Assembly (NCBI RefSeq): GCF_003018255.1
Contig: NZ_CP027440.1
Reading direction: 5' to 3' (one strand)
Length of the DNA: 64,000 bases
Source: Escherichia coli
GTDB taxonomy: Bacteria > Pseudomonadota > Gammaproteobacteria > Enterobacterales > Enterobacteriaceae
In this document: positions 34,426 through 58,626 of the stretch, in pieces
Layout of the letters: each line of letters starts with the position of its first letter
Numbering within the stretch: position 1 is the stretch's first letter
The notes under the pieces: model-generated
What the model saw: only the letters and a program-made list of their open reading frames with translations
Told to the model about the DNA's origin: nothing
The model's database searches: none
Program-made: the position numbers and the translations under genes

Positions 34426-37400
34426 ATGAGCGGAAAACCAGCGGCGCGTCAGGGAGATATGACTCAGTATGGCGGTCCCATTGTCCAGGGTTCGGCAGGT
34501 GTAAGAATTGGCGCGCCCACCGGCGTGGCGTGCTCGGTGTGTCCGGGCGGGATGACTTCGGGCAACCCGGTAAATCCGCTGCTGGGGGCGAAGGTGCTGC
34601 CCGGCGAGACGGACCTTGCGCTGCCCGGCCCGCTGCCGTTCATTCTCTCCCGCACCTACAGCAGCTACCGGACGAAGACGCCTGCGCCGGTGGGGATTTT
34701 TGGCCCCGGCTGGAAAGCGCCTTCTGATATCCGCTTACAGATACGCGATGATGCACTGGTACTCAACGACAACGGCGGACGGAGCATTCACTTTGAGCCG
34801 CTGCTGCCGGGTGAGGCGGTGTACAGCCGCAGCGAGTCAATGTGGCTGGTGCGCGGTGGTAAGGCAGCGCAGCCGGACGGCCACACGCTGGGGCGGCTGT
34901 GGGGGGCGCTGCCGCCGGATATCCGGTTAAGCCCGCATCTTTACCTGGCGACCAGCAGCGCACAGGGACCGTGGTGGATACTGGGGTGGTCAGAGCGGGT
35001 GCCGGGTGCTGAGGACGTACTGCCAGCGCCGCTGCCGCCGTACCGGGTGCTGACGGGGCTGGCGGACCGCTTCGGGCGGACGCTGACGTACCGGCGTGAG
35101 GCCGCCGGCGACCTGGCCGGGGAAATCACCGGCGTGACGGACGGTGCCGGGCGTGAGTTCCGTCTGGTGCTGACCACGCAGGCGCAGCGTGCGGAAGAGG
35201 CCCGCACCTCTTCGCTATCTTCTTCTGACCGTCCCCGCCCTCTCTCAGTCTCAGCGTTCCCCGACACACTGCCCGGTACCGAATACGGCCCCGACAGGGG
35301 TATCCGCCTTTCGGCGGTGTGGCTGATGCACGACCCGGCATACCCGGAGAGCCTGCCCGGTGCGCCACTGGTGCGGTACACGTATACGGAAGCCGGTGAA
35401 CTGCTGGCGGTATATGACCGCAGCAATACGCAGGTGCGCGCTTTCACGTATGACGCGCAGCACCCGGGCCGGATGGTGGCGCACCGTTACGCGGGAAGGC
35501 CGGAGATGCGCTACCGCTACGACGATGCGGGGCGGGTGGTGGAGCAGCTGAACCCGGCAGGCCTGAGTTACCGCTACCAGTATGAGCAGGACCGCATCAC
35601 CGTCACCGACAGCCTGAACCGGCGTGAGGTGCTGCATACAGAAGGCGGGGCCGGGCTGAAGCGGGTGGTGAAAAAAGAACTGGCGGACGGCAGCGTCACG
35701 CACAGCGGGTATGACGCGGCAGGAAGGCTCACGGCACAGACGGACGCGGCGGGACGGCGGACAGAGTACGGCCTGAATGTGGTGTCCGGCGATATCACGG
35801 ATATCACCACGCCGGACGGGCGGGAGACGAAATTTTACTATAACGACGGGAACCAGTTAACGGCGGTGGTGTACCCGGACGGGCTGGAGAGCAGCCGGGC
35901 ATATGATGAGCTGGACAGACTGGTATCGGAGACATCGCGCAGCGGGGAGACAGTACGCTACCGCTACGATGACGTGCACAGTGAGTTACCGGCGACGACA
36001 ACGGATGCGACGGGCAGCACCCGGCAGATGACCTGGAGCCGCTACGGGCAGTTGCTGGCCTTCACCGACTGCTCGGGCTACCAGACCCGCTATGAATACG
36101 ACCGCTTCGGCCAGATGACGGCGGTTCACCGCGAGGAAGGTATCAGCCTTTACCGCCACTATGACAACCGTGGCCGGTTAACCTCGGTGAAAGACGCACA
36201 GGGCCGTGAAACGCAGTATGAGTACAACGCCGCAGGCGACCTGACTGCCGTTATCACCCCGGACGGCAACCGGAGCGAGACACAGTACGATGCGTGGGGA
36301 AAGGCGGTCAGCACCACGCAGGGCGGGCTGACGCGCAGTATGGAGTACGATGCTGCCGGACGTGTCATCAGCCTGACCAACGAGAACGGCAGTCACAGCG
36401 ACTTCAGCTACGATGCGCTGGACCGCCTGGTACAGCAGGGCGGCTTTGACGGGCGGACGCAACGTTATCATTATGACCTGACCGGAAAACTCACGCAGAG
36501 TGAAGATGAGGGGCTTGTCATCCTCTGGTACTACGATGAATCGGACCGTATCACTCACCGCACGGTGAACGGCGAACCGGCAGAGCAGTGGCAGTATGAT
36601 GGCCACGGCTGGCTGAGAGAAATCAGCCACCTGAGCGAAGGCCACCGTGTTGCCGTCCACTATGGCTACGACGATAAGGGCCGTCTGACCGGGGAGCGCC
36701 AGACGGTGGAGAACCCGGAGACGGGGGAACTGCTGTGGCAGCATGAGACGAAACAGGCATACAACGAACAGGGGCTGGCAAACCGCGTCACGCCGGACAG
36801 CCTGCCGCCGGTGGAGTGGCTGGCCTATGGCAGCGGTTATCTGGCGGGCATGAAGCTGGGCGGGACGCCGCTGCTGGAGTACATGCGGGACAGACTGCAC
36901 CGGGAGACGGTGCGCAGCTTCGGCAGCATGGCAGGCAATACAGCCGCATATGAACTGACCAGCACTTACACCCCCGCAGGCCAGTTACAGAGCCGGCACC
37001 TGAACAGCCTGGTGTTTGATTGTGACTATAACTGGAATGACAACGGCGACCTGATGCGCATCAGCGGCCCGCGACAGACGCGGGAATACGGCTACAGCGC
37101 CACGGGCAGGCTGGAGAGCGTGCGCACCCTCGCACCGGACCTGGACATCCGCATCCCGTATGCCACCGACCCGGCGGGCAACCGGCTGCCGGACCCGGAG
37201 CTGCACCCGGACAGTACACTCACAGTGTGGCCGGATAACCGAATCACCGAAGACGCGCACTACCTGTACCGTTACGATGAATACGGCAGGCTGGCGGAGA
37301 AGACGGACCGCATCCCGGCGGGTGTGATACGGACGGACGACGAGCGGACCCACCACTACCACTACGACAGCCAGCACCGCCTGGTGTTCTATACGCGGAT

Positions 37401-38586
37401 ACAGCATGGCGAGCCACTGGTCGAGAGCCGCTACCTTTACGACCCGCTGGGCCGCCGGACGGGTAAACGGGTATGGCGGCGGGAGCGTGACCTGACGGGG
37501 TGGATGTCGCTGTCGCGTAAACCGGAGGTGACGTGGTACGGCTGGGACGGCGACCACCTGACGACGGTGCAGACCGACACCACGCGTATCCAGACGGTAT
37601 ATCAGCCGGGGAGCTTCGCGCCGCTCATCCGCATCGAAACAGACAACGGTGAGCGGGAGAAAGCGCAGCGCCGCAGCCTGGCGGAGAAGCTGCAGCAGGA
37701 AGGGAGCGAGGACGGGCACGGCGTGGTATTTCCGGCTGAACTGGTGCGGCTGCTGGACAGACTGGAGGAAGAAATCCGGGCAGACCGCGTGAGCAGTGAA
37801 AGCCGGGCGTGGCTTGCGCAGTGCGGGCTGACGGTGGAGCAACTGGAAAAACAGGTGGAGCCGGAATACACACCGGCGCGAAAAGTTCATCTTTACCACT
37901 GCGACCACCGGGGACTGCCGCTGGCGCTTATCAGCGAAGACGGCAATACGGTGTGGAGCGCGGAGTATGATGAATGGGGAAACCTGCTTAATGAGGAGAA
38001 CCCGCATCATGTGTATCAGTCATACCGTCTGCCGGGGCAGCAGCATGATGAGGAGTCGGGGCTGTACTACAACCGGAACCGGTACTACGATCCGTTGCAG
38101 GGGCGGTATATCATCCAGGACCCGATAGGGCTGGCGGGGGGAATAAACCCGTACAGTTATGTTATGAACAATCCTGTGCAATGGATTGATCCATTGGGAT
38201 TAGCTCATACTTCAGGAAAATGGAAGGACTGTGGTAAAGGTTGTCGAATCCGAATAGATGGCGATGCTGTTGGTGACGGAAGACATTTGCATTGGGAGTG
38301 TAAAAATGGGAGTGGTGTAATGGGGGAATTTGGAGGTATGTCCCATGGTGAGGATTACTCATCAGCACCAAATAGCATTAAGAAATGTGCAAAAAAATAT
38401 GGTTTCGAGCCAGAACCAAGTAAAGATCTGTCATGCAAAACCTCCGGGCTATCAACTACTGATGCGGCTCTTGCAACTGGTGCTACAATTGGCGCAGGGT
38501 ATGTTATATATAGAGTGATTCGATTTATACCTTCACTTGCACCACCTCTTTGGTGGTCAATACCTGCAAACGTTGTTACTCCATGA
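34426..38586 (+). CDS. rhsE: Rhs-family polymorphic toxin with N-terminal PAAR motif, YD-repeat core and divergent C-terminal domain (1386 aa)
   Basis: Literal PAAR at residues 5-8 ([11 protein letters not shown]); numerous YD repeats; conserved core end DPIGLAGG...DPLGL at 38119-38202; sharp GC-rich to AT-rich switch after about 38160. Confidence 0.9.
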
Positions 38587-38612
38587 TTAAAACGGATAAT
38601 GGAGATTATATA

Positions 38613-38957
38613 ATGAGCGATTTTGACATTGTGAGTTCAATTGACTGGCATGATGGGGTTTTGTTAGAAGTAAAAACGACATTCAAAGAATCTCATTTTA
38701 ACATGACGTTATTTATTGACATTTATAAAAATGAGAACATTAGGGAAAAAATGATAGTTGAATTTTCTGATGTAGATGATTTAGTGTTCGCTATGGATTC
38801 TGCTGAGTTAATCGATAATCACAAGTCAGGTAATATAAGTAATGGGTATGTAAAGAAATTAAAAAACAAAAGGATATATAAATTTTTTCTTTATTTTTCT
38901 GATGGCTTATTAAGCATGACATTTAAAAATTTACAATTAATAAAACCATTAGAGTAA
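38613..38957 (+). CDS. Putative Rhs immunity protein (small AT-rich ORF downstream of the Rhs C-terminal domain)
   Basis: ORF 38550..38957; ATG 38613 preceded by GGAG at 8-nt spacing (114 aa); alternative ATG 38583 overlaps the rhsE stop as ATGA (124 aa); position and AT-richness typical of Rhs immunity genes. Confidence 0.55.
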   Translation: MSDFDIVSSIDWHDGVLLEVKTTFKESHFNMTLFIDIYKNENIREKMIVEFSDVDDLVFAMDSAELIDNHKSGNISNGYVKKLKNKRIYKFFLYFSDGLLSMTFKNLQLIKPLE

Positions 38958-39124
38958 CCAAATAAAAGGACTGGAGGAATCAGGGGAAGATCATTAAAGT
39001 TGTGATTATCATCACAACTTTAATCTTGGTTTCACCTTGTTGATTTGATTAAAATTTAATCGCCAAATAATTAAATATATTAGAAAAGGACGTCTGGTGA
39101 ACATTCAAAGTCTTCTTGAGCATA

Positions 39125-40415
39125 CAGGGAAAGATCATCAGAAGTACACTTTTTGTACTAAATAATTCGCATTTTATGTTTAAAAATTGAGATATTCCTC
39201 ATTACCTAAAGCTGTTTTTTATTGCTTATACATGATCAAATACTCCTTACATAATTAAGGAGAACAAAATGGAACTTAAAAAATTGATGGGACATATTTC
39301 TATTATCCCCGATTACAGACAAACCTGGAAAGTGGAACATAAATTGTCAGATATTCTACTGTTGATTATTAGTGCCGTTATTTCTGGTGCAGAAGGCTGG
39401 GAAGATATAGAGGATTTTGGGGAAACACATCTCGATTTTTTAAAGCAATATGGTGATTTTAAAAATGGTATTCCTGTTCACGATACCATTGCCAGAGTTG
39501 TATCCTGTATCAGTCCTGCAAAATTTCACGAGTGCTTTATTAACTGGATGCGTGACTGCCATTCTTCAGATGATAAAGACGTCATTGCAATTGATGGAAA
39601 AACGCTCCGGCATTCTTATGACAAGAGTCGTCGCAGGGGAGCGATTCATGTCATTAGTGCATTCTCAACAATGCACAGTCTGGTCATCGGACAGATCAGG
39701 ACGGATGAGAAATCTAATGAGATTACAGCTATCCCTGAACTTCTTAACATGCTGGACATTAAAGGAAAAATTATCACAACTGATGCGATGGGTTGCCAGA
39801 AAGATATTGCAGAGAAGATACAAAAACAGGGAGGTGATTATTTATTCTCTGTAAAAGGAAACCCGGGGCGGCTGAATAAAGCTTTTGAGGAAAAATTTCC
39901 ACTGAAAGAATTAAATAATCCAGAGCATGACAGTTACGCAATTAGTGAAAAGAGTCACGGCAGAGAAGAAATCCGTCTTCACATTGTTTGCGATGTCCCT
40001 GATGAACTTATTGATTTCACGTTTGAATGGAAAGGTCTGAAGAAATTATGCGTGGCAGTCTCCTTTCGGTCAATAATAGCAGAACAAAAGAAAGAGCCAG
40101 AAATGACGGTCAGATATTATATCAGTTCTGCTGATTTAACCGCAGAGATGTTCGCCACAGCAATCCGAAACCACTGGCACGTGGAGAATAAGCTGCACTG
40201 GCGTCTGGACGTGGTAATGAATGAAGACGACTGCAAAATAAGAAGAGGAAACGCCGCAGAATTATTTTCAGGGATACGGCACATCGCTATTAATATTTTA
40301 ACGAATGATAAGGTATTCAAGGCAGGGTTAAGACGTAAGATGCGAAAAGCAGCCATGGACAAAAACTATCTGGCGTCAGTCCTTGCGGGGAGCGGGCTTT
40401 CGTAATCTTTCCCTG
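39125..40415 (+). mobile_element. H-repeat element (ISAs1-family insertion sequence), copy 2, about 1291 bp, same orientation as copy 1
   Basis: Near-identical to 32462..33753 including terminal inverted repeats. Confidence 0.8.
39269..40405 (+). CDS. H-repeat-associated protein / ISAs1-family transposase (378 aa)
   Basis: 378-aa ORF with AAGGAG site; paralogue of 32607..33743. Confidence 0.85.
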
Positions 40416-52587: not shown

Positions 52588-53469
52588 TTAGCCACGACGT
52601 GTCGCCAGCCAGCAGAGCAGGGAACCGCCGCAGACCATTAGCGCGCCTTGCCAGAACGAGAACGACAGCGGGGCGCTGAGCAGCACGGCTGCAAGCGCTG
52701 AGGAAAGGACGGGCGTAAAATACGAACCTACCGCCATAATGGTGACGTTGCCATGTAATATACCGACGTTCCATGCAGCATAAGCAAATCCTAAGGTAAA
52801 TGCCGCAGAGATGAGTTTAATCATGACTGGCGTGCTAAATACCATTTCTGGTTGTGGCGTGAGAAAATAGTAAACCCACAGACTTGCTCCCGTTAGCAGG
52901 ACAAAAACGGTAATTCCGTTAAATCCGCGTGCGTATTTATTCGTTACTGTGCAGTAGGCTGCCCAGATAAACGCACCAATAAACGACAGGAAATAACTCA
53001 ATGGGCTGGTGGTGATATTATTGATGATTTCATCATAATGTAACCCATTGTCACCACCTAACACCCAGCAGACGCCGACCAGGGCTAATAATAATCCTGG
53101 TACAATCAGCCAGTTGGTTTTCTGACCATTAAACAGAATGGCAAAGAGAATTGTCAGGCTGGGCCATAGATAGTTCACCATCCCCACTTCAATCGCCTGA
53201 TGACGGGTCGCCGCATACCCTAAGGAAAGCGCCAGACAGATTTCATAGCTGACGAATAACAGACTCCCGGCGAGTAAATAGCCTTTCGGGATCTGCCGAA
53301 TACGCGGAAATCCAACCGTGAAGATTAACAGCAGCCCGCTTAATGAATAGATAGCAGCTGCGCCGCCGACCGGGCCGAGCCCCTCACTGACACCGCGAAT
53401 CAATCCTACCATCGTGCTCCACAGGACGATCGCTATTAGCCCTATGAGCGTTGCTTTTTGTCGTGTCAT
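52588..53469 (-). CDS. yddG: Aromatic amino acid exporter (DMT/EamA family)
   Basis: 293-aa hydrophobic ORF; divergent from fdnG. Confidence 0.85.
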   Translation of the reverse strand: MTRQKATLIGLIAIVLWSTMVGLIRGVSEGLGPVGGAAAIYSLSGLLLIFTVGFPRIRQIPKGYLLAGSLLFVSYEICLALSLGYAATRHQAIEVGMVNYLWPSLTILFAILFNGQKTNWLIVPGLLLALVGVCWVLGGDNGLHYDEIINNITTSPLSYFLSFIGAFIWAAYCTVTNKYARGFNGITVFVLLTGASLWVYYFLTPQPEMVFSTPVMIKLISAAFTLGFAYAAWNVGILHGNVTIMAVGSYFTPVLSSALAAVLLSAPLSFSFWQGALMVCGGSLLCWLATRRG

Positions 53470-53559
53470 GCTCGCTGTTTTGTCTCTCTTGCCGTTAAAA
53501 ATTAAGCTGAATTTTATAGCATTTTTTTAACTGGCCTGTCAGGCAGTGGTGCGTTTTTC

Positions 53560-53636
53560 TACCGCTATTGAGGTAGGTCAATTTGCGCAGGCGGATTATT
53601 TTGTGGCAAACACGTGTTCTTTTTGATTTCGCGCAA
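53560..53636 (+). promoter_or_regulatory. fdnG anaerobic promoter region: NarL 7-2-7 heptamer pair (taccgct-at-tgaggta, 53560-53575) and FNR-like site (ttgatttcgcgcaa, about 53623-53636)
   Basis: Motifs read from sequence, spaced about 62 bp apart as expected for NarL around -105 and FNR around -42; fdnG is a known FNR/NarL target. Confidence 0.45.
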
Positions 53637-53700
53637 AAAGATTCAGAATTTTACTGTTAGTTTCCTCGCGCAGTAATACCCCTGAAAAAAGAGGAAAGCA

Positions 53701-56700
53701 ATGGACGTCAGTCGCAGACAATTTTTTAAAATCTGCGCGGGCGGTATGGCTGGAACAACGGTAGCGGCATTGGGCTTTGCCCCGAAGCAAGCACTGGCTC
53801 AGGCGCGAAACTACAAATTATTACGCGCGAAAGAGATCCGTAACACCTGCACATACTGTTCCGTAGGTTGCGGGCTATTGATGTATAGCCTGGGTGATGG
53901 CGCGAAAAACGCCAGAGAAGCGATTTATCACATTGAAGGTGACCCGGATCATCCGGTAAGCCGTGGTGCGCTGTGCCCGAAAGGGGCCGGTTTGCTGGAT
54001 TACGTCAACAGCGAAAACCGTCTGCGCTACCCGGAATATCGTGCGCCAGGTTCTGACAAATGGCAGCGCATTAGCTGGGAAGAAGCATTCTCCCGTATTG
54101 CGAAGCTGATGAAAGCTGACCGTGACGCTAACTTTATTGAAAAGAACGAGCAGGGCGTAACGGTAAACCGTTGGCTTTCTACCGGTATGCTGTGTGCCTC
54201 CGGTGCCAGCAACGAAACCGGGATGCTGACTCAAAAATTTGCCCGCTCCCTCGGGATGCTGGCAGTAGACAACCAGGCGCGCGTCTGACACGGACCAACG
54301 GTAGCAAGTCTTGCTCCAACATTTGGTCGCGGTGCGATGACCAACCACTGGGTGGATATCAAAAACGCTAACGTCGTAATGGTGATGGGCGGTAACGCTG
54401 CTGAAGCGCATCCCGTCGGTTTCCGCTGGGCGATGGAAGCGAAAAACAACAACGATGCAACCTTGATCGTTGTCGATCCCCGTTTTACGCGTACCGCTTC
54501 TGTAGCGGATATTTACGCACCTATTCGTTCCGGTACGGACATTACGTTCCTGTCTGGCGTTTTGCGCTACCTGATCGAAAACAACAAAATCAATGCCGAA
54601 TACGTTAAGCATTACACCAATGCCAGCCTGCTGGTGCGTGATGATTTTGCTTTCGAAGACGGTCTGTTCAGCGGCTACGACGCTGAAAAACGGCAATACG
54701 ATAAATCGTCCTGGAACTATCAGTTCGATGAAAACGGCTATGCGAAACGCGATGAAACACTGACTCATCCGCGCTGTGTGTGGAACCTGCTGAAAGCGCA
54801 CGTTTCCCGCTACACGCCGGACGTTGTTGAAAACATCTGCGGTACGCCAAAAGCCGACTTCCTGAAAGTGTGTGAAGTGCTGGCCTCCACCAGCGCACCG
54901 GATCGCACAACCACCTTCCTGTACGCGCTGGGCTGGACGCAGCACACCGTGGGTGCGCAGAACATCCGTACTATGGCGATGATCCAGTTGCTGCTCGGTA
55001 ACATGGGTATGGCCGGTGGCGGCGTGAACGCATTGCGTGGTCACTCCAACATTCAGGGCCTGACCGACTTAGGTCTGCTCTCAACCAGCCTGCCGGGTTA
55101 TCTGACGCTGCCGTCAGAAAAACAGGTTGATTTGCAGTCGTATCTGGAAGCGAATACGCCGAAAGCGACGCTGGCTGATCAGGTGAACTACTGGAGCAAC
55201 TATCCGAAGTTCTTCGTTAGCCTGATGAAATCTTTCTACGGCGATGCCGCGCAAAAAGAGAACAACTGGGGCTACGACTGGCTGCCGAAGTGGGACCAGA
55301 CCTACGACGTCATCAAGTATTTCAACATGATGGACGAAGGCAAAGTCACCGGTTATTTCTGCCAGGGCTTTAACCCGGTTGCGTCCTTCCCGGACAAAAA
55401 CAAAGTGGTGAGCTGCCTGAGCAAGCTGAAGTACATGGTGGTTATCGATCCGCTGGTGACTGAAACCTCTACCTTCTGGCAGAACCACGGCGAGTCGAAC
55501 GATGTCGATCCGGCGTCCATTCAGACTGAAGTATTCCGTCTGCCTTCGACCTGCTTTGCTGAAGAAGATGGTTCTATTGCTAACTCCGGTCGCTGGTTGC
55601 AGTGGCACTGGAAAGGTCAGGACGCGCCGGGCGAAGCACGTAACGACGGCGAAATTCTGGCGGGTATCTACCATCATCTGCGCGAGCTGTACCAGGCCGA
55701 GGGTGGTAAAGGCGTAGAACCGCTGATGAAGATGAGCTGGAACTACAAGCAGCCGCACGAACCGCAATCTGACGAAGTGGCGAAAGAGAACAACGGCTAT
55801 GCGCTGGAAGATCTCTATGACGCTAATGGCGTGCTGATTGCGAAGAAAGGTCAGTTGCTGAGTAGCTTTGCGCATCTGCGTGATGATGGTACAACCGCAT
55901 CTTCTTGCTGGATCTACACCGGTAGCTGGACAGAGCAGGGCAACCAGATGGCTAACCGCGATAACTCCGACCCGTCCGGTCTGGGGAATACGCTGGGATG
56001 GGCCTGGGCGTGGCCGCTCAACCGTCGCGTGCTGTACAACCGTGCTTCGGCGGATATCAACGGTAAACCGTGGGATCCGAAACGGATGCTGATCCAGTGG
56101 AACGGCAGCAAGTGGACGGGTAACGATATTCCGGACTTCGGCAATGCCGCACCGGGTACGCCAACCGGGCCGTTTATCATGCAGCCGGAAGGGATGGGAC
56201 GCCTGTTTGCCATCAACAAAATGGCGGAAGGTCCGTTCCCGGAACACTACGAGCCAATCGAAACGCCGCTGGGCACTAACCCGCTGCATCCGAACGTGGT
56301 GTCTAACCCGGTTGTTCGTCTGTATGAACAAGACGCGCTGCGGATGGGTAAAAAAGAGCAGTTCCCGTATGTGGGTACGACCTATCGTCTGACCGAGCAC
56401 TTCCACACCTGGACCAAGCACGCATTGCTCAACGCAATTGCTCAGCCGGAACAGTTTGTGGAAATCAGCGAAACGCTGGCGGCGGCGAAAGGCATTGCCA
56501 ATGGCGATCGTGTCACTGTCTCCAGCAAGCGTGGCTTTATCCGCGCGGTGGCTGTGGTAACGCGCCGTCTGAAACCGCTGAATGTAAACGGTCAGCAGGT
56601 TGAAACGGTGGGTATTCCAATCCACTGGGGCTTTGAGGGTGTCGCGCGTAAAGGTTATATCGCTAACACTCTGACGCCGAATGTCGGTGATGCAAACTCG

Positions 56701-56748
56701 CAAACGCCGGAATATAAAGCGTTCTTAGTCAACATCGAGAAGGCGTAA
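53701..56748 (+). CDS. fdnG: Formate dehydrogenase-N alpha subunit, selenoprotein (in-frame UGA = selenocysteine at 54286-54288), Tat-exported
   Basis: ORF-track ORFs 53701..54288 and 54337..56748 are in the same frame and separated only by TGA; total 1015 aa; Tat signal MDVSRRQFFK; recognised as FdnG. Confidence 0.9.
54289..54330 (+). other. Putative SECIS element directing selenocysteine insertion at the fdnG UGA
   Basis: Located immediately 3' of the in-frame TGA as in bacterial selenoprotein mRNAs; contains short inverted repeat gcaag-tc-ttgc; structure not folded. Confidence 0.45.
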
Positions 56749-56760
56749 GGGGGCGAACAG

Positions 56761-57645
56761 ATGGCTATGGAAACGCAGGACATTATCAAAAGGTCCGCAA
56801 CTAACTCCATCACGCCGCCTTCTCAGGTGCGTGATTACAAAGCAGAAGTCGCAAAACTTATCGACGTTTCCACCTGTATCGGCTGTAAAGCCTGTCAGGT
56901 GGCGTGTTCGGAGTGGAACGACATCCGTGATGAAGTGGGGCACTGCGTCGGGGTTTACGATAACCCCGCCGATCTGAGCGCCAAGTCCTGGACGGTGATG
57001 CGCTTTAGCGAAACCGAACAGAACGGCAAGCTGGAGTGGCTGATCCGTAAAGACGGCTGTATGCACTGTGAAGATCCGGGCTGCCTGAAGGCGTGCCCGT
57101 CTGCTGGTGCAATCATTCAGTACGCTAACGGGATTGTCGATTTCCAGTCGGAAAACTGCATCGGCTGTGGTTACTGCATTGCCGGGTGTCCGTTTAATAT
57201 TCCGCGCCTCAACAAAGAGGATAACCGGGTATATAAATGCACGCTCTGCGTCGATCGCGTCAGCGTCGGCCAGGAACCGGCTTGTGTGAAAACCTGTCCG
57301 ACCGGGGCTATCCACTTCGGCACCAAGAAGGAGATGCTGGAGCTGGCGGAACAGCGCGTGGCGAAACTGAAAGCGCGTGGTTACGAACATGCTGGCGTCT
57401 ACAACCCGGAAGGGGTCGGTGGTACGCACGTTATGTACGTGCTGCATCACGCCGATCAGCCGGAGCTGTATCACGGTCTGCCGAAAGATCCGAAGATCGA
57501 CACCTCGGTAAGCCTGTGGAAAGGCGCGTTGAAACCGCTGGCAGCGGCTGGCTTTATTGCCACTTTTGCCGGGTTGATTTTCCACTACATCGGTATTGGC
57601 CCGAATAAGGAAGTGGACGATGACGAGGAGGATCATCATGAGTAA
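56761..57645 (+). CDS. fdnH: Formate dehydrogenase-N beta subunit (4x[4Fe-4S])
   Basis: 294-aa ORF with four ferredoxin-type Cys clusters and C-terminal TM segment. Confidence 0.9.
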
Positions 57646-58291
57646 GTCGAAAATGATTGTGCGCACCAAATTTATTGATCGCGCCTGTCACTGGACCGTG
57701 GTGATTTGCTTCTTCCTGGTGGCGCTGTCCGGGATTTCGTTCTTCTTCCCGACGCTGCAATGGCTGACGCAAACCTTCGGTACGCCGCAGATGGGACGCA
57801 TTTTGCACCCGTTCTTCGGCATTGCGATTTTCGTCGCGCTGATGTTTATGTTTGTGCGTTTTGTACATCACAATATCCCGGATAAGAAGGATATTCCGTG
57901 GCTGTTGAACATTGTCGAAGTATTAAAAGGCAATGAGCACAAAGTGGCGGATGTTGGTAAGTACAACGCCGGGCAGAAGATGATGTTCTGGTCGATCATG
58001 AGCATGATTTTCGTGCTGCTGGTGACCGGGGTGATTATCTGGCGTCCGTACTTTGCGCAGTACTTCCCGATGCAGGTTGTTCGCTACAGCCTGCTGATTC
58101 ACGCGGCTGCGGGTATCATCCTGATCCACGCCATCCTGATCCATATGTATATGGCATTCTGGGTGAAAGGATCGATTAAAGGGATGATCGAAGGGAAGGT
58201 GAGCCGTCGCTGGGCGAAGAAACACCATCCGCGCTGGTATCGTGAAATCGAGAAGGCGGAAGCGAAAAAAGAGAGTGAAGAAGGGATATAA
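57638..58291 (+). CDS. fdnI: Formate dehydrogenase-N gamma subunit (cytochrome b556)
   Basis: ORF 57596..58291; ATG 57638 with GAGGAGGA site gives 217 aa; overlaps fdnH by 8 nt. Confidence 0.85.
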
Positions 58292-58313
58292 TCTCTTTTG
58301 AACTTTAAGCTGA

Positions 58314-58344
58314 AAATGGCGCTTTAAGAAGCGCCATTTTTTTA
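58314..58344. terminator. Rho-independent terminator after fdnI (aaatggcgc-tttaagaa-gcgccattt + TTTTT); overlaps the 3' end of convergent yddM
   Basis: Hairpin plus T-run read from sequence. Confidence 0.6.
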
Positions 58345-58626
58345 TTGCGTAACCAGACGGCGCAGTCGCGACACATCCACCGTTTTTTCAGCCTCTGCCA
58401 GGCTCCAGGCGTTTTGCAGATTCAGCCACATTTGCGGCGAACTGCCGATCACCACGGAAAGTTTAATCGCCATTTCCGGAGTGAGCGCCGCTTTTCCGGT
58501 CAGCAATCGGCTTGCCGTTGAGGGCGCAATTTCCATTGCTCTGGCAAACTCGCGCAGGCTGACATTAAGTTCGTCCAGTGATTCCTGAATAATGTCCCCC
58601 GGGCGGGGATGATTGGCCATTTTCAT
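58342..58626 (-). CDS. yddM: HigA-family antitoxin (XRE-type HTH)
   Basis: 94-aa ORF; HTH ([22 protein letters not shown]); immediately downstream of and overlapping a HigB-like ORF. Confidence 0.8.

Follow-up and report, generated by a model that had tools for sequence, protein, structure and literature searches.

To our knowledge, just three E. coli proteins have selenocysteine (Sec) inserted at a specific UGA codon, and formate dehydrogenase-N (FDH-N) is one of them. The SECIS element of fdnG, the gene for its catalytic subunit, was among the first to be characterised and is a textbook case. As cited in PMC13188914, two studies published in 1991 (Berg, Li, Heider and Stewart; Berg, Baron and Stewart) reported that the opal codon of fdnG encodes selenocysteine and that a stem-loop in the mRNA is essential for selenocysteine decoding. 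In the mechanism described there, SelB, loaded with GTP and Sec-tRNA(Sec), attaches to the apical loop of the element and delivers Sec at the UGA while the ribosome unwinds the lower helix (PMC13188914). The bacterial SECIS (bSECIS) model given there has a loop of 3-9 nt with a G in its first two positions, an upper stem of 4-16 bp, a distance of 16-37 nt from the UGA to the loop and a minimum free energy (MFE) of at most -7.5 kcal/mol (PMC13188914). For elements of the E. coli type, the apical stem-loop starts 11 nt after the UGA (nt 15-31), and carries a bulged U17 and the loop nucleotides G23 and U24 (PMC8659212).

At the protein level, the formate dehydrogenase alpha selenoprotein family is characterised by the Sec-related motif U-H-x-P (PMC13188914, Table 1). 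In FdnG/FdoG of E. coli MC4100, the peptide V-U196-HGPTVASLAPTFGR was identified by MS/MS with selenocysteine and never with cysteine, residue 196 was detected by mass spectrometry only as Sec or as its dehydroalanine derivative, and in a selC mutant translation stops at codon 196 (PMC3636253). Here, the fdnG locus of the window, which is the whole 64-kb stretch of E. coli DNA that was analysed, is compared with these systems.

The fdnG reading frame contains a single internal UGA codon

The following genes and codon were assigned at the locus:

53701 to 56748, + strand: fdnG, formate dehydrogenase-N alpha (catalytic) subunit (translation, TIGR01553, PDB 1kqf_A and RefSeq annotation)
54286 to 54288, + strand: UGA codon 196 of fdnG, read as selenocysteine (frame, homology on both sides, conservation and mass spectrometry from the literature)
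56761 to 57645, + strand: fdnH, iron-sulfur beta subunit (TIGR01582, 482.1 bits; RefSeq annotation)
57638 to 58291, + strand: fdnI, cytochrome b gamma subunit (NF007558, 486.9 bits; RefSeq annotation)

Translation of 53701-56748 resulted in 1016 codons (1015 residues and the stop) with one internal stop, which lies in the context ...NQARV(stop)HGPTVASLAPTFGRG... In the list of open reading frames the gene is represented by two ORFs, 53701-54288 (195 aa) and 54337-56748 (803 aa), which lie in one common frame. The apparent start of the 803-aa ORF at 54337 arises because the ORF lister takes the first ATG past the stop. The ORF list and the translation thus bear out the original prediction that both ORFs are in one frame and are split solely by the TGA at 54286-54288.

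The N-terminus of FdnG, MDVSRRQFFK..., is a twin-arginine signal peptide. When the internal stop was replaced, FdnG matched the NCBIfam equivalog TIGR01553 end to end, with 1621.9 bits against a cut-off of 814.2 (FdnG residues 2-1014, profile positions 1-1009 of 1009), and PDB 1kqf_A with 2394.8 bits over residues 1-1015. The homology to both is uninterrupted on the two sides of the UGA, and the TGA at 54286-54288 aligns with the non-standard residue X at position 196 of 1kqf_A. Residues 196-199 read U-H-G-P, corresponding to the Sec-related motif U-H-x-P. In the displayed portion of the alignment, four substitutions separate the FdnG of the window from the K-12 protein in 1kqf, namely F342 (L), A366 (E), A666 (S) and A933 (N), with the K-12 residues in brackets. 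In near-identical genomes annotated by RefSeq, the same span is a single fdnG CDS of 3048 nt, and together with the TIGR01553 score this confirms the identity of the gene, which had been named fdnG from the letters alone.

The gamma subunit encoded downstream is of the FdnI type, as 486.9 bits were obtained with NF007558 (FDH-N gamma) compared with 268.4 bits with the cytochrome b556 gamma-subunit model NF007924, which is below the cut-off of 341 for that model. Near-identical genomes with RefSeq annotation show the gene order yddG-fdnGHI-yddM-adhP. The 3.6-kb locus was found in 5425 of the 5426 complete E. coli genomes, with 99.7% identity for the top complete-genome match, and the best genome matches of the window have identities of 99.1-99.9%. 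Across these 3.6 kb, an identity of 99% or higher is reached by just 72 of 5434 records, and the source strain therefore belongs to a minority lineage.

The UGA codon is directly followed by a SECIS hairpin

SECIS_3 (RF01989) was the sole Rfam family with a match above its gathering score in the whole 64-kb window. It was identified with 84.3 bits (gathering score 63, E = 1.8e-19) over model positions 1-59 of 59. With 28.8 bits, a match to SECIS_2 stayed under the gathering score of that model (70) and was disregarded. The element is divided as follows:

54283 to 54341, + strand: whole SECIS, Rfam RF01989 (SECIS_3), including the UGA and unpaired flanks (84.3 bits)
54289 to 54299, + strand: 11-nt spacer, nt 4-14 with the U of the UGA as nt 1, 5' strand of the lower helix (sequence reading)
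54300 to 54317, + strand: apical stem-loop, nt 15-32, the part predicted to bind SelB (MFE, Rfam structure and covariation)
54318 to 54333, + strand: internal-loop residues, then the 3' strand of the lower helix (MFE and Rfam structures)

The UGA is in frame within a continuous coding frame, and the SECIS lies directly 3' of it, inside the coding region. Folding of 54286-54335 with ViennaRNA, which had been proposed as a check, resulted in an MFE hairpin that pairs 54288-54333 with -14.6 kcal/mol. The Rfam structure of SECIS_3 pairs 54289-54331, and in this register the lower helix of the E. coli sequence contains A-C and A-G oppositions. From 5' to 3', the apical part consists of GG, the bulged U17, AGCAA, the loop G23 U24 C25, UUGCU and CC. 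The key nucleotides U17, G23 and U24 are located at 54302, 54308 and 54309, respectively, and the loop G23-C25 at 54308-54310.

With its 11-nt spacer, U17, G23 and U24, the fdnG element agrees with the description of E. coli-type elements in PMC8659212. It also fits the bSECIS model, having a 3-nt loop (GUC) with G as its first nucleotide, an upper stem of 5+2 bp, a distance of 19 nt from the UGA to the loop and the above MFE of -14.6 kcal/mol. The match to SECIS_3 above the curated threshold and the U17/G23/U24 features identify the RNA downstream of the TGA as a SECIS hairpin, as had been predicted. The span proposed for it, 54289-54330, holds for the apical stem-loop at 54300-54317, which lies wholly inside, but the lower stem reaches 1-3 nt beyond the end of this span.

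Covariation distinguishes the hairpin from chance

The folding energy of the hairpin (50 nt) was no better than that of shuffled sequences (z = -1.03; 25 of 200 shuffles fold as well), and folding of a 111-nt context revealed no significant extra structure (z = +0.27). The folding energy of the fdhF SECIS is likewise unremarkable (z = -0.08). Because stability fails to separate these elements from shuffles, evidence was sought in the covariance model, in covariation and in conservation. By these three measures, and not by folding energy alone, the hairpin is more than chance.

Covariation was scored in 61 distinct sequences from many phyla, among the matches listed, that share the position of the loop; all percentages and counts in this paragraph refer to this set. 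The apical helix is 93% paired. Four of the seven apical pairs change on both sides, with columns 16-17, 19-20 and 26-27, which were fixed by the search pattern (ACNGT) or by the filter (loop GT), given no weight. Pair 24-30 is formed by CG (31 sequences) or AU (30 sequences), and pair 21-33 occurs as six standard pair types; neither is unpaired in any sequence. The observed covariation score was reached by none of 500 shuffles, and when the 3' partners were slid, pairing dropped from 84.5% to 30-50%. Since the covariation falls largely on the wobble nucleotides of codons for Val, Ala and Leu, the signal acts at the RNA level. For the lower helix, 78.0% and 75.7% pairing were obtained in the Rfam and ViennaRNA registers, respectively. 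Neither register is clearly better, and the lower helix is accordingly less well supported than the apical one.

Conservation of the codon and alternatives to selenocysteine decoding

The original prediction had named a sense codon in a resequenced copy as the observation that would speak against it. In 5389 of the 5426 complete E. coli genomes the copy carries the TGA, always under fdnG, as counted by megablast with the exact 33-mer at 54271-54303, which spans the TGA and cannot find copies with an altered TGA. More distant homologues were collected with a degenerate pattern that allows TGA, TGC or TGT (TGH) and was scanned over one genome per species, resulting in at least 121 matches. Among the matches listed, TGA is present in 119 of 121 homologues from many phyla, and a Cys codon (TGT, TGC) occupies the Sec position in two, L047:1697-1755 (a Dehalococcoidia MAG) and L107:446-504; two Cys homologues are too few for a Sec/Cys contrast of hairpin loss. 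The 59-mer of the window is identical in 22 loci of other Enterobacterales genomes, among the matches listed.

These data bear on the possibility that the TGA is a true stop, which would leave a pseudogene or separate genes of 195 and 803 aa. The mechanical ORF list does split the frame at this codon, UGA normally terminates translation, and sel mutants do stop there (PMC3636253). However, one protein family and one crystallised chain match straight across the stop, a SECIS above the curated threshold directly follows it, and there is no start codon or ribosome-binding context that could serve an independent downstream gene before 54337, a position that itself lies within a conserved motif. 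Together with the frequency of TGA (5389/5426 E. coli genomes and 119/121 homologues among the matches listed), which is unexpected for a disabling mutation, this makes a true stop very improbable. The same frequency weighs against the possibility that a cysteine codon (TGC/TGT) was misread as TGA in sequencing or assembly. Cysteine is chemically tolerated in the family, with a Cys codon in L047 and L107 (2/121 among the matches listed), but the same base is read in thousands of independently sequenced genomes and the identical 59-mer occurs in 22 other Enterobacterales loci (among the matches listed), so that the probability of such an error is next to nil.

In E. coli, UGA followed by C is a leaky stop context, and the UGA of fdnG, which has C next, might be read through without SelB or a SECIS, for example by a near-cognate Trp or Cys tRNA or through a frameshift. 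The frame is constant across the stop, though, and a frameshift is thus unneeded, while such readthrough leaves a conserved, covarying hairpin with the SelB-recognition nucleotides unexplained. In addition, residue 196 has been found only as Sec or dehydroalanine and never as Cys (PMC3636253). Readthrough independent of a SECIS is accordingly regarded as extremely improbable.

Co-translational recoding of UGA 196 of fdnG to selenocysteine, by means of a SelB-bound bacterial SECIS 3' of the UGA, is therefore the preferred reading, to which a probability of about 0.98 is assigned. The claim that the TGA is a recoded Sec codon and not a gene boundary is upheld by residue X196 of 1kqf_A, by the match of TIGR01553 across the stop and by mass spectrometry (PMC3636253). 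Direct observation covers the reading frame, the assignment of the gene and of the SECIS to their families, the location of U17, G23 and U24, the apical covariation and the fixation of TGA in the population and across species.

Synonymous sites are frozen beyond the 3' end of the hairpin

Comparison of codons around the UGA delimited one more feature:

54334 to 54351, + strand: stretch 3' of the hairpin in which synonymous sites are frozen in Enterobacterales fdnG/fdoG (codon identity and the 71-nt identical run)

Among the matches listed, 26 distinct Enterobacterales fdnG/fdoG sequences were compared codon by codon with the window. Codon identity is 0.92-1.00 from codon -1 to codon +21 (54283-54351), a zone that is partly fixed by the search pattern, which left the wobble sites of codons 1-3 and 11-21 unconstrained, and it drops to 0.08 at codon +22, from which point synonymous sites are free to vary. 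In the flanking codons, including those for invariant amino acids, it is typically 0.1-0.7. The frozen zone outlasts the hairpin by ∼18 nt and is longer than the Rfam model and the minimal SelB-binding stem-loop. The stretch at 54334-54351 may lie outside the SECIS proper. Codon preference and gene conversion between the paralogues are ordinary candidates for its origin, and it is unlikely, though worth stating, that it represents an additional, undescribed mRNA determinant of recoding efficiency, e.g., through contact with the ribosome or SelB or through an alternative pairing.

Flanking regions of the window

A scan of 53400-58500 for promoter and terminator consensus sequences gave fewer matches than shuffled sequences. 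Upstream of fdnG, at 53623-53636, the sequence TTGAT-TTCG-CGCAA was noticed by eye and resembles a pair of FNR half-sites, for which the consensus is TTGAT-N4-ATCAA. Such a putative site would fit anaerobic induction of fdnGHI.

In the window, the end of fdnI at 58291 and the yddM ORF (58342-58626) are separated by a gap at 58292-58341. In the nearest complete genomes a gene for an IS200C transposase, which is absent from the window, is located between fdnI and yddM. A hairpin, AAAAAAATGGCGCTTCTTAAAGCGCCATTTT, is present between the two genes at ∼58307-58353 and looks like a bidirectional terminator; Rfam sRNA matches at 58276-58353 were all below the gathering score. Further away, an ORF of 1386 aa for an RHS element core protein lies at 34426-38586, with an ORF for an ISAs1-family transposase (39269-40405) after it. 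Nowhere in the window do E. coli genomes vary more than in 34426-40405. The segment 20001-40000 is covered to at least 80% by just 3260 of 5426 E. coli genomes.

Predicted decoding of codon 196 and comparison with known systems

For the strain studied here, SelB binding, Sec insertion and the role of Sec196 are what we infer from the literature on E. coli K-12. The mRNA immediately 3' of the UGA would fold into the bacterial SECIS hairpin, and its apical stem-loop at 54300-54317 would be bound by the C-terminal domain of SelB in complex with GTP and Sec-tRNA(Sec). Melting of the lower helix by the ribosome would bring the UGA into the A site, where the tethered SelB, competing with release factor 2, is expected to deliver Sec-tRNA(Sec). 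Translation would then go on to yield a 1015-residue, Tat-exported catalytic subunit in which Sec196 is predicted to ligate molybdenum; without selenium or the sel genes, it would stop at codon 196. Neither a sel gene (selA, selB, selC or selD) nor tRNA(Sec) was found in the 64-kb window (no tRNA was detected with Rfam). The genes selA-selB are present in 5425 of the 5426 complete E. coli genomes, and it is very likely from these other genomes that the source strain has them. With respect to annotation, the two ORFs belong together as a single selenoprotein gene whose codon 196 carries a translation exception, which is how RefSeq treats it.

Comparison with the SECIS elements of fdhF and fdoG had also been proposed as a check, and its outcome agrees with the prediction, since the fdoG element is identical and the fdhF element has the same spacer and the same positions of U17, G23 and U24. 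E. coli fdoG is a paralogue at another chromosomal locus, with overall identities to fdnG of 74.8% (nucleotides) and 77% (amino acids). The longest identical run between fdnG of the window and K-12 fdoG is 71 nt long, at 54283-54353, and reaches from codon 195 through the hairpin, whereas the next longest is 35 nt; Sec is likewise found at position 196 of FdoG (PMC3636253).

The reference bacterial SECIS, that of E. coli fdhF, shares with fdnG the UGA followed by CAC GG, the 11-nt spacer, the GG...CC clamp with the bulged U17 and the loop nucleotides G23 U24 C25, at equal distances from the UGA. The apical stem differs, being 4 bp (UGCA/UGCA) with a GGUC loop in fdhF and 5 bp (AGCAA/UUGCU) with a GUC loop in fdnG, and so does the sequence of the lower helix.

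FdhA genes annotated as Deltaproteobacteria, Desulfo* taxa and Chloroflexi (e.g., L012 and L071-L073) have the same Sec position, the UH motif and a hairpin directly after the UGA. However, these hairpins (…GCGGCUCUGGCAGAGUC…) differ from that of fdnG in that the loop is located ∼4 nt further 3' and the GGU-bulge motif is lacking. Among the matches listed, such a hairpin unlike that of fdnG (…GCGGCTCTGGCAGAGTC…), with the loop shifted ∼4 nt in the 3' direction and no GGU-bulge motif, follows the same UGA in 28 distinct FdhA sequences. The loci, again among the matches listed, are L012:3211-3269, L071-L073, L027, L059 and ∼20 others, and by annotation they derive mostly from Deltaproteobacteria or Desulfo* taxa, with several from Chloroflexi, Dehalococcoidia and other phyla.

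Closest of all is fdnG of E. coli K-12, which is the same gene with the same codon and has an identical SECIS sequence over at least 54271-54350; the differences between K-12 and the window are strain-level polymorphism outside the element only. The element of the window is thus the K-12 fdnG Sec codon and SECIS itself and was already known, as the original prediction had aptly indicated by giving established knowledge as its basis, and the textbook picture of selenocysteine decoding in fdnG is unchanged.
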